A stretch of DNA of 7,902 nt from positions 1 through 7,902 of IMG/VR virus record IMGVR_UViG_3300005066_000231; one strand, given 5' to 3'. The translations under genes were made by a program, and so were the position numbers. Of the stretch, positions 6,863 through 7,678 are shown in pieces. Source of the DNA: a virus. The notes under the pieces were generated by a model, which saw only the letters and a program-made list of their open reading frames with translations, made no database searches and had not been told where the DNA came from. The number at the start of each line of letters is the position of its first letter. The stretch's first letter is position 1.

Positions 6863-6970
6863 TTAGCCCCCACATTTGGTCATGTGAAAAGCAATGTTGT
6901 TTTTGTGCATTAAACAGAAACACTTTGGACATTCTGCGATGTCTGACTGATGCACGTATTTGATATTCAT
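6863..6970 (-). CDS. 35-aa Cys/His-rich mini-protein, CCHC zinc-finger-like (MNIKYVHQSDIAECPKCFCLMHKNNIAFHMTKCGG)
   Basis: It is not in the ORF track. Its ATG overlaps the stop of 6967..7266 as ATGA. It has a CxxC-x11-HxxxC ligand pattern, and its C-terminal HMTKCGG parallels HFYKCRG of the 32-aa ORF at 7675..7773. Confidence 0.45.
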   Translation of the reverse strand: MNIKYVHQSDIAECPKCFCLMHKNNIAFHMTKCGG

Positions 6971-7266
6971 AGTGATGAACCTTTATTTTCTCTGGCTTTT
7001 TTCTTAAGATCTTCATATTCGCCAAGGCTGTAATATTTACCTTGGAATAAATACAAATATTCAAAATTACCAAATTCATTGAAGTCACCTGCACGTTTAA
7101 TACGCTTAGGTCTGCGTAAACGCTCTCCTAGACGATCAATCGAATCGACTAAGCGTGCAAAGAAGAAAACACCAACAAGTAAACCTAGTAGAAACGAACC
7201 AGTAAAAAGTGGTGCTAGTCCATTTAGAAGCTGAGAGGCTAATTGAGCTTGTTGAAGTTCATTCAT
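6967..7266 (-). CDS. 99-aa single-TM protein with highly charged C-terminal domain (track start 7287 is an alternative)
   Basis: This is an ORF-track ORF with a TM segment LAPLFTGSFLLGLLVGVFFFARLV followed by RLRRPKRIKR and a Tyr/Glu/Lys-rich tail. The ATG at 7266 overlaps the stop of the P-loop ORF (ATGAATGA). There is no SD before the ATG at 7287. Confidence 0.7.
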   Translation of the reverse strand: MNELQQAQLASQLLNGLAPLFTGSFLLGLLVGVFFFARLVDSIDRLGERLRRPKRIKRAGDFNEFGNFEYLYLFQGKYYSLGEYEDLKKKARENKGSSL

Positions 7267-7678
7267 TTCCAAAATCCCGACGACCATTAAAAAGCTTATC
7301 TATATGTAATAATTCACTCAAAACACGAATATCCTTGTGCGCAAATTTTTCGTGTTGAAAGATAAAAACAAGATCGTGGTTTAGCTGATTCTTTCCAAAA
7401 TGTCTGTGAGATATAAGGCTCTTAACTCTGTGATCAATACCTTTAAAACGTTCAGTAAAGTGGTCTATATATTCACAACCGTCATATATAACGAATGCTG
7501 ATTCGGTTATAAGCGTCCAATCACAATCAGGAATAGCCTTAAATGATTTCGGTAAAAAACTTTGATCATTTGTGTTATCTATGATGTTTGTATAAACGGG
7601 TTTACTCTGTAAAAGTGCCATTTCAATTGCAGTACAAGTTTTCCCTGAAATTGGAACACCAGTAATCAAAGTAATCAT
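7259..7678 (-). CDS. Stand-alone Zot-N-terminal-like P-loop protein (paralog of the pI NTPase domain, truncated)
   Basis: This is a 139-aa ORF with a GGGGGA SD about 4 nt upstream. It aligns to the N-terminus of the 396-aa Zot/pI in this window at three segments. These are ITLITGVPISGKT vs ILITGTPGSGKS (Walker A intact), FVIYDGCE vs IIFYDEAQ (Walker B Asp kept, Glu replaced by Gly) and SHRHFG..HDLVFIFQ vs VHRHTGHDIYFITQ. It has no TM or C-terminal domain. Confidence 0.8.
   Translation of the reverse strand: MITLITGVPISGKTCTAIEMALLQSKPVYTNIIDNTNDQSFLPKSFKAIPDCDWTLITESAFVIYDGCEYIDHFTERFKGIDHRVKSLISHRHFGKNQLNHDLVFIFQHEKFAHKDIRVLSELLHIDKLFNGRRDFGNE

Follow-up and report, generated by a model that had tools for sequence, protein, structure and literature searches.

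A stand-alone, membrane-free pI/Zot P-loop core encoded in addition to full-length Zot in an Acinetobacter-type inovirus

Introduction

The DNA considered here (the window: a stretch of 7,902 nucleotides (nt), positions 1 to 7,902 of IMG/VR virus record IMGVR_UViG_3300005066_000231) belongs to an inovirus that encodes a complete pI/Zot protein of 396 amino acids (aa) and, at another place in its genome, a 139-aa open reading frame (ORF) resembling only the N-terminal P-loop domain of that protein. Why should a phage that possesses the whole protein also carry a separate piece of it? An earlier note, made from the sequence alone, had recognised the short ORF as a stand-alone Zot N-like P-loop protein and had asked whether this ORF and the overlapping downstream ORF, which encodes a transmembrane (TM) helix, might be a natural split gene, a frameshift-fused product or a decaying duplication. 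The identification stands, but the three proposed origins are each contradicted by the evidence presented below. The short product, termed mini-Zot (7678..7259, minus strand; 16.1 kDa, soluble), corresponds to the P-loop core of the N-terminal pI/Zot domain in truncated form, and we consider it very probable that it represents a genuine, selected stand-alone gene. The best overall explanation, which on balance appears probable, is that of a stand-alone accessory protein built on the pI core that modulates phage assembly; the mechanism by which it might do so can be outlined only tentatively.

Homology and fold of mini-Zot

Sequence, profile and structure comparisons agree in assigning mini-Zot to the pI/Zot family. 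BLASTP aligns it with the resident 396-aa Zot at 24% identity over 134 aa (E=2e-7). The Pfam Zot profile (PF05707), against which the earlier note had suggested checking the ORF, is matched at 25.3 bits, above the gathering score of 20.3 (E=1.2e-5), in a partial match that ends at about profile position 141 of 197, and phrog_197 ('Zot-like toxin') is matched at 1.4e-12. Profile-profile alignment by hhalign with 15 full-length Zots yields a probability of 99.85% (E=6e-31) and covers Zot residues 2-127, bearing out the estimate that the ORF ends near the equivalent of Zot residue 125. Among annotated phage records, the best match is the N-terminus of Pf3 pI, with 41% identity. Neither mini-Zot nor the downstream membrane protein was matched by the PADLOC defence models or by NCBIfam.

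A sequence search of the PDB returned only a weak match to 2r2a (E=0.25, chain residues 7-144 of 199), and a fold search was needed for confirmation. With the AlphaFold2 model of mini-Zot (mean predicted local distance difference test score 78.8), the top PDB match in Foldseek was 2r2a_B, the N-domain of a Neisseria Zot (E=2.9e-4, probability 1.00, query-normalised TM-score 0.56), while among predicted viral structures the model best matched Zot proteins, with tox1 of Vibrio phage VSK at the top. The protein lacks a TM helix (maximum Kyte-Doolittle 19-residue window 1.08) and ends at residue 139. Of the cytoplasmic P-loop domain of pI/Zot it therefore retains no more than the N-terminal ~125 residues, encompassing strand 1, the P-loop, the Walker B strand, the HRH/sensor strand and one further helix.

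Motifs and active-site residues

The motifs that the earlier note had read from the sequence lie at the places it named. Walker A is GVPISGKT (7660..7637, minus strand), whose Lys13 and Thr14 do not vary within the family. The Walker B region is FVIYDGCE (7495..7472, minus strand), which keeps the Asp, has Gly in place of the catalytic Glu, and ends in the invariant Cys68 and Glu69. The third motif, HRHFG..HDLVFIFQ (7408..7355, minus strand), is the equivalent of the HRHTGHD..ITQ motif of Zot with a five-residue insertion, the Zot-invariant Thr102 being Phe.

The alignment of full-length Zots displays the invariant residues G11, K14, D65, E66, R92, H93, D97, T102 and Q103. The Acinetobacter mini-Zot clade keeps the Walker A Lys and Thr and, with the sole exception of member P0131, the Walker B Asp, which in P0131 has become Asn (IIYNSCE). 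The position of G11, the 'PG' glycine, is occupied by I, M, C, L, A or Y. Gly, Ala or Ser stands at the position of E66 in all 14 mini-Zots first aligned and in five further clade members, so that the substitution of DG(CE) for DE described in the earlier note is a property of the clade rather than of a single sequence. The clade also possesses new invariants (C68, E69, E110, F112 and A113) among 36 invariant columns, some of which are family-specific. Cys68 aligns with the essential Cys90 of M13 gp1 (LLVLDEC); Loh et al. found K14, D88, E89 and C90 of M13 gp1 to be each essential, with E89Q and D88N abolishing phage production (PMC5408679). Judged from these residues, the suggestion that mini-Zot may bind nucleoside triphosphate (NTP) and not hydrolyse it is plausible.

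Two further ideas concerning the active site were rejected. Loss of the second Walker A Gly, seen as SFKT or SLKT in P0010, P0012 and P0013, is not a mark of a dead enzyme, since PGSFK[ST] is carried by full-length Zots from this host range and, like GxxxxYK[ST], is common among functional Zots. Such a Walker A, in which Phe stands where the second Gly is canonical, occurs in the full-length Zots of Rep_trans-type Acinetobacter prophages (L005 12747-13931; L007 12776-14053; L008 6041-7336; L014 5978-7255) and resembles the GxxxxYK[ST] reported for Vibrio and Pseudomonas Zots (PMC12285184). Complementation by mini-Zot of resident Zots with an atypical SFK Walker A was likewise discarded, since the Zots of the window, L015, L018 and L024 are canonical.

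Distribution and evolution of the mini-Zot family

Searches with mini-Zot recovered 14 clusters of 128-145 aa sharing 60-74% identity, together with further short members (P0039, P0065 and P0128-P0131). The whole short-protein family spans 127-145 aa and comprises about 20 clusters at 90% identity, which are 31-74% identical, contain no internal stops or frameshifts, and collapse at 50% identity to a single representative and a few outliers. In a profile search of 1.84 billion representatives, the next matches after the family were ordinary Zots of 300-400 aa with E-values of at least 1e-13. The ratio of nonsynonymous to synonymous substitution rates (dN/dS) is 0.08-0.29 with saturated dS, indicating purifying selection. 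In a neighbour-joining tree of N-domains, 14 short proteins are monophyletic in 100 of 100 bootstrap replicates and sit on a long branch, and the resident Zot appears as their sister in merely 2 of 100. Mini-Zot is roughly equally distant (29-36%) from every Zot lineage sampled and is not a close paralogue of the resident Zot, which corrects the earlier note's reading of the two as clearly paralogous.

Every locus complete enough to judge also encodes the full-length Zot of its phage, with 24-39% identity between a mini-Zot and its own Zot. Between phages in which the full-length Zots share only 31-46% identity and the Rep families differ (Phage_CRI or Rep_trans), mini-Zots still share 56-74%. 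The gene lies between the replication/single-stranded DNA (ssDNA)-binding module and the small coat genes in eight of nine architectures (the window, L005, L007/L014, L015, L018/19, L024, L016/17 and L022), the sole differing one being L008/9, where it follows the full-length Zot. Short forms more distantly related to the Acinetobacter clade keep this place in other inoviruses. Thus, P0039/P0130 (127-132 aa) occur in L016/17 in the order Rep, 57 aa, mini-Zot, 57 aa and, further on, a 445-aa Zot, and P0131 (140 aa) occurs in L022 in the order Rep, 97 aa, mini-Zot. The 924-nt fragment L020, which carries P0065 (142 aa) in the order mini-Zot, 70 aa, coat, was excluded from the architecture count.

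A closely related phage shows how the gene has been exchanged. Sister phage L010 is identical to the window at 93.6% of positions in the Rep/ssDNA-binding genes, at 95.9% in the region of zn32 (a 32-aa zinc-finger-like ORF directly upstream of mini-Zot; 7773..7675, minus strand) and at 87.9% in the downstream membrane-protein gene, TM99. The mini-Zot slot of L010, bounded precisely by the zn32 stop and the TM99 ATG, is filled by an unrelated 104-aa ORF (2744-3058). A diverged mini-Zot was considered for this ORF and rejected (hhalign probability 0.4%), and it gave no Pfam, PHROG or PADLOC match. The breakpoints of the cassette relative to L010 lie at the 3' end of zn32 on the left and at the ATGAATGA overlap on the right; thus, the 8-nt overlap between mini-Zot and TM99 exists because the inserted cassette ends within TM99's own start. 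The zn32/TM99 junction marks a hot spot of accessory-gene exchange, and this swap, together with the portability of mini-Zot across divergent Zots, indicates horizontal movement as a single-gene cassette. Mini-Zot is dispensable, being absent from L010, L012, L013 and Acinetobacter phage M02, and is an old, mobile, re-purposed accessory gene.

These hosts can harbour several inovirus prophages at once. Two Acinetobacter-like contigs (L018 1-20405 and L008 1-17741) hold tandem arrays of three to four such prophages or their remnants, differing in Rep and Zot type, within ~20 kb. Among zot-positive A. baumannii strains, 24.4% have two zot genes and 13.4% have three or more (PMC11209303).

The downstream membrane-protein gene

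The gene that follows mini-Zot encodes TM99, a single-pass membrane protein of 99 aa (7266..6967, minus strand; the longest ORF begins at 7287), in the +1 frame relative to mini-Zot. The overlap described in the earlier note is real and measures 8 nt (ATGAATGA, 7266..7259, minus strand), comprising the TM99 start codon and the next codons with the mini-Zot stop inside; however, it holds only with the TM99 start at the second ATG (7266) and not at 7287. All 23 of 23 homologues begin at this second ATG (MNELQ/MTELE), which makes the true product 99 aa with its start at 7266. As the earlier note had described, the protein supplies a TM helix and a charged domain: there is one helix (7218..7162, LAPLFTGSFLLGLLVGVFF; Kyte-Doolittle 19-residue window 2.10), followed by RLRRPKRIK and then FEYLYLF.G.YY, and the tail is basic and charged, the isoelectric point of the protein being 9.5.

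The TM99 family comprises 24 clusters of 90-118 aa in Acinetobacter, with 52-90% identity and a dN/dS of 0.11-0.22, again reflecting purifying selection. Its profile shows no similarity to any part of the Zot alignment, including the C-terminal half (hhalign probability 0.5%), and a fold search with the TM99 model, whose predicted TM-score is only 0.36, gave no match with E<0.8. The two families are distributed independently: TM99 follows the ssDNA-binding gene in prophages without mini-Zot (L010, L012 and L013), and mini-Zot occurs without TM99 in L005/6, L007/14, L015, L018/19, L024, L016/17 and L022. The profile of phrog_35398, a group of uncharacterised phage membrane proteins, matches TM99 weakly (E=0.0022), L008 orf109 at 2.9e-6 and L015 orf108 at 5.7e-9, and hhalign relates TM99 to L015 orf108 with a probability of 72% (E=3.5e-5). 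TM99 is thus a separate accessory gene unrelated to pI, forming an independent conserved family that may be distantly tied to phrog_35398. A common architecture, consisting of a TM helix, R-x-P-[KN]-[RK]-I-K and a short Y-L-Y/F beta unit, is seen in TM99, the 108-aa protein of L015 (6438-6764) and the 109-aa protein of L008 (7753-8082). Genes of the phrog_35398 type vary in place, being found after the ssDNA-binding gene, after mini-Zot or after Zot.

Competing explanations

Several origins and roles can be weighed against these data. A functionless, decaying remnant of a duplicated or captured zot would fit the truncation relative to Pfam Zot (to ~141 of 197), the loss of catalytic residues and the variable C-terminal tail; it is refuted by selection and conservation and is the least credible of all, given a monophyletic family that maintains its length (127-145 aa) and intact reading frames across ~20 clusters at 31-74% identity, has a low dN/dS and its own 36 invariant columns, and is more conserved than the resident Zots. 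Nearly as implausible, and largely refuted, is the proposal that both ORFs derive from one pI-like gene as a naturally split or frameshift-fused paralogue. The order of NTPase, TM helix and charged domain does resemble pI, the ORFs overlap by 8 nt, and a two-ORF pI has a precedent in tox1 (145 aa) and tox2 (243 aa) of Vibrio phage VSK, but the pair does not recapitulate pI in two pieces, as TM99 lacks similarity to its C-terminal half. Moreover, mini-Zot and TM99 each occur without the other, and the fused relatives for which the earlier note had proposed looking were found neither in either family search nor in the exhaustive profile search of 1.84 billion representatives. The window genome also encodes a complete pI elsewhere, unlike VSK. 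A fusion product would require a +1 shift, yet the TM frame, closed by a stop ~40 nt upstream, contains no slippery heptamer in its open stretch of ~45 nt; the sole X XXY YYZ heptamer is situated at codon 40. The ATG-AAT-GAA at the overlap is the TM gene's own conserved start, also found in L010.

Two alternatives grant mini-Zot a function of a different kind. In one, mini-Zot and a phrog_35398-type membrane anchor would form a two-piece, non-homologous analogue of pI. Membrane proteins directly follow mini-Zot in two unrelated architectures (TM99 in the window and orf109 in L008/L009), one directly follows the full-length Zot in L015, and phrog_35398 and hhalign connect these proteins as described above. 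This arrangement is nevertheless improbable, because six mini-Zot architectures (L005/6, L007/14, L018/19, L024, L016/17 and L022) lack a phrog_35398-like ORF, TM99 proper occurs without mini-Zot, and the cassette swap in L010 leaves TM99 intact; such genomes offer few insertion slots, and the double adjacency may be due to chance. In the other, mini-Zot would assist the phage's own assembly as a soluble adaptor or chaperone, possibly an NTPase using Glu69, that escorts the ssDNA/packaging-signal complex or pVII/pIX-like proteins to pI and raises output. Its recurrent place directly upstream of gVII/gIX/gVIII-like genes (eight of nine architectures, with the same order in fragment L020), its translational coupling with neighbours, the canonical Walker A and B of P0039/P0130, and the genetic interaction of the pI N-domain and gVII with the packaging signal all speak for such a helper. 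We nonetheless regard this role as unlikely, although less so than the two-piece module, since the gene is dispensable, does not co-diverge with the resident Zot, and has lost the catalytic Glu clade-wide and the Asp in one member.

Proposed role and mechanism

The explanation preferred here is that mini-Zot is an accessory protein acting on assembly, for which a mechanism can be sketched, with some reserve, from its residues and gene arrangement. Having kept the P-loop Lys and Thr and usually the Mg-binding Asp, but having lost the catalytic Glu along with further active-site residues that are invariant in Zot, mini-Zot would bind NTP and turn it over slowly or not at all, and would thereby represent a natural Walker-B trap mutant. 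The absence of a membrane anchor and co-translation with an abundant early/coat operon would make it a soluble protein present in excess over pI. Signs of translational coupling are found at successive junctions, namely ATGA between zn32 and mini-Zot, ATGAATGA between mini-Zot and TM99, and ATGA between TM99 and the next gene, orf35. The corresponding operon of Ff phages is strongly expressed, and their pI is scarce. Mini-Zot might then occupy the partners of the pI N-domain, either the pI ring itself or the initiation complex of the packaging signal and pVII-pIX, and such occupancy would modulate assembly initiation in trans. In Xanthomonas phage phiLf-UK, suppressors of packaging-signal mutants have been located in gI (E104A, in the pI N-domain), gVII, ORF9 (PSB15) and ORF11 (bioRxiv 10.1101/2024.03.19.585677).

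As to the direction of the effect, a throttling or competitive (decoy) role is tentatively favoured over that of an essential helper, because the gene is dispensable, is portable across divergent pI types and resides in hosts that stack inovirus prophages. A more specific form of this idea is correspondingly more speculative and doubtful: mini-Zot could be a portable, nucleotide-locked decoy made in excess that caps or poisons the pI rings or initiation complexes of rival filamentous phages in polylysogenic hosts, as a means of competition between phages, or those of its own phage, permitting non-lethal chronic production.

Several observations weigh against the reading of mini-Zot as a functional, catalytically silenced modulator. 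The only indications of its expression are the tight packing of the operon and a GGGGG run resembling a Shine-Dalgarno sequence. The family is rare, and a pattern scan of GTDB species-representative genomes yielded no confirmed locus. Conservation and model quality are both poor over the last 16 residues, and the model displays four core strands only, so that the fold may need a partner or be marginally stable. The related short lineage P0039/P0130 has canonical GIPGSGKT and YDECQ motifs, and loss of catalysis is therefore not common to all short forms; read most simply, the protein was truncated first, and its catalytic competence was relaxed afterwards in the Acinetobacter clade. Finally, the invariant Glu69, located three residues after the Walker B Asp, could serve as a relocated catalytic base, in which case mini-Zot might be an active NTPase.

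Comparison with known systems

With the pI/Zot proteins (PF05707; M13 gp1, CTXphi Zot, Pf3 ORF301; structure 2r2a), mini-Zot shares the P-loop core, the Walker A Lys and Thr, the Walker B Asp with the conserved Cys, the HRH..HD..Q motif and the fold. It differs from them in having ~125 of the ~190 N-domain residues and neither a TM helix nor a periplasmic domain, in lacking the catalytic Glu, G11 and T102, and in being encoded in addition to a complete pI at another genome place. The NCBI labels of two mini-Zot members are 'zonular occludens toxin domain-containing protein' or 'P-loop NTPase family protein'.

The earlier note had likened a separate NTPase-only protein to the reciprocal of pXI of Ff phages. 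The likeness is valid insofar as both are second proteins equal to one half of pI, and an NTPase-only product is indeed encoded in addition to a full-length pI. It fails in other respects: pXI is the membrane/periplasmic half, arises from an internal start in gene I and is essential, whereas mini-Zot is the cytoplasmic half and is encoded by a separate, diverged gene (24-39% identity) that is dispensable and horizontally exchanged. Vibrio phage VSK offers another parallel, as its tox1 is a Zot N-terminal P-loop ORF of ~145 aa; in contrast to mini-Zot, tox1 lies side by side with tox2 behind the pVI-like gene, where pI canonically stands, and the two form the phage's only pI. In the VSK record (L021 5023-6188), tox1 and tox2 overlap by 4 nt and the split point lies near the place where mini-Zot ends; either the gene is truly split or the record contains a frameshift.

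Functional analogues may be sought among small accessory proteins of other inoviruses. PfsE of Pf4, a superinfection-exclusion peptide encoded by an accessory gene between the ssDNA-binding and coat genes, resembles mini-Zot in being small and non-structural and in its genomic location; PfsE affects interactions with other phages. PSB15 of Xanthomonas phiLf-UK is likewise a small (~15 kDa) non-structural protein, acting on assembly initiation. Neither has a sequence relationship to mini-Zot or is a P-loop protein, and any functional likeness would be one of analogy.

Genome context

The window represents a complete circular Acinetobacter-type inovirus genome of 7,811 nt (7.8 kb), bases 1-91 being exactly repeated at 7812..7902 as a 91-bp assembly overlap. 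Every core gene is carried on the minus strand. Owing to circularity, zn32 and mini-Zot are placed directly downstream of the genes for Rep (Phage_CRI and G2P_X_C; 1912..431, minus strand) and an ssDNA-binding-like protein (phrog_15713; 420..94, minus strand). The stop of zn32 overlaps the mini-Zot start in an ATGA. The spacing of the zn32 sequence, MPQSYFKCKKCGHSFESQLILCIHFYKCRGNK, fits that of a classical zinc finger, C-x2-C-x3-F-x5-L-x2-H-x3-C, in a C2HC variant; the ORF, which lies directly after the ssDNA-binding gene, is conserved in L010 (~96% nt identity) and L008 (53% aa identity), and a single finger of eukaryotic style is unusual for an inovirus.

Beyond TM99, the tightly packed operon continues with orf35 (35 aa; 6970..6863, minus strand), whose start overlaps the TM99 stop in an ATGA and which has a homologue in Acinetobacter phage M02. 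Next come the small ORF orf57 (6859..6686, minus strand) and the gene for the major coat protein of 87 aa (Phage_Coat_B; 6672..6409, minus strand). The products of orf35 and orf57 are pVII/pIX-like. A mechanically listed 132-aa ORF (6807..6409, minus strand) overlaps orf57, the coat protein proper being the 87-aa product from 6672, which is also the one called in L003 and L004. A pIII-like gene (6365..4890, minus strand), a pVI-like DUF2523 gene (4921..4604, minus strand) and the resident full-length Zot/pI follow. The latter (4607..3417, minus strand) combines canonical motifs (GTPGSGKS and YDEAQ) with a TM helix and a C-terminal domain. A repressor-like gene occupies 2034..2237 on the plus strand. 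Between the coat and pIII-like genes there is a ~50-bp imperfect inverted repeat (85% complementary; 6350-6399), which may be the terminator or attenuator hairpin typically found after the coat gene in inoviruses. A promoter and terminator scan of 6300-7902 found nothing exceeding the shuffled background.

The nearest isolate is phage M02, with a Zot identity of 53.5%, and a megablast search of the whole window against GenBank phages gave no match. The same phage is integrated in metagenome contig L003, where 51-bp imperfect direct repeats flank it (L003 584-634 and 8395-8445) and an integrase-like gene adjoins.

Implications

A literature search returned no description of conserved, short second copies of the pI/Zot ATPase core that stand alone, lack a membrane segment and have an altered catalytic site. 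In work on filamentous phages of Acinetobacter, zot genes have been tallied as copies of prophages, and counts of 'zot' overestimate the number of prophages wherever mini-genes of this kind occur. The enterotoxic peptide of V. cholerae Zot lies in the C-terminal region, which mini-Zot lacks, and the gene should therefore not be annotated as a toxin.

The pI/Zot protein, the one marker that nearly all filamentous phages share, is also the component of their egress machinery about which least is understood. Should mini-Zot bind to the motor or to the initiation complex, it would provide a natural soluble handle on the cytoplasmic domain of pI, which is toxic and hard to purify at full length, and may offer insight into competition among co-resident inoviruses or into the limits of virion output. 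If it acts as a decoy, it would reveal a previously undescribed regulation of filamentous-phage egress and provide a natural Walker-B trap protein.

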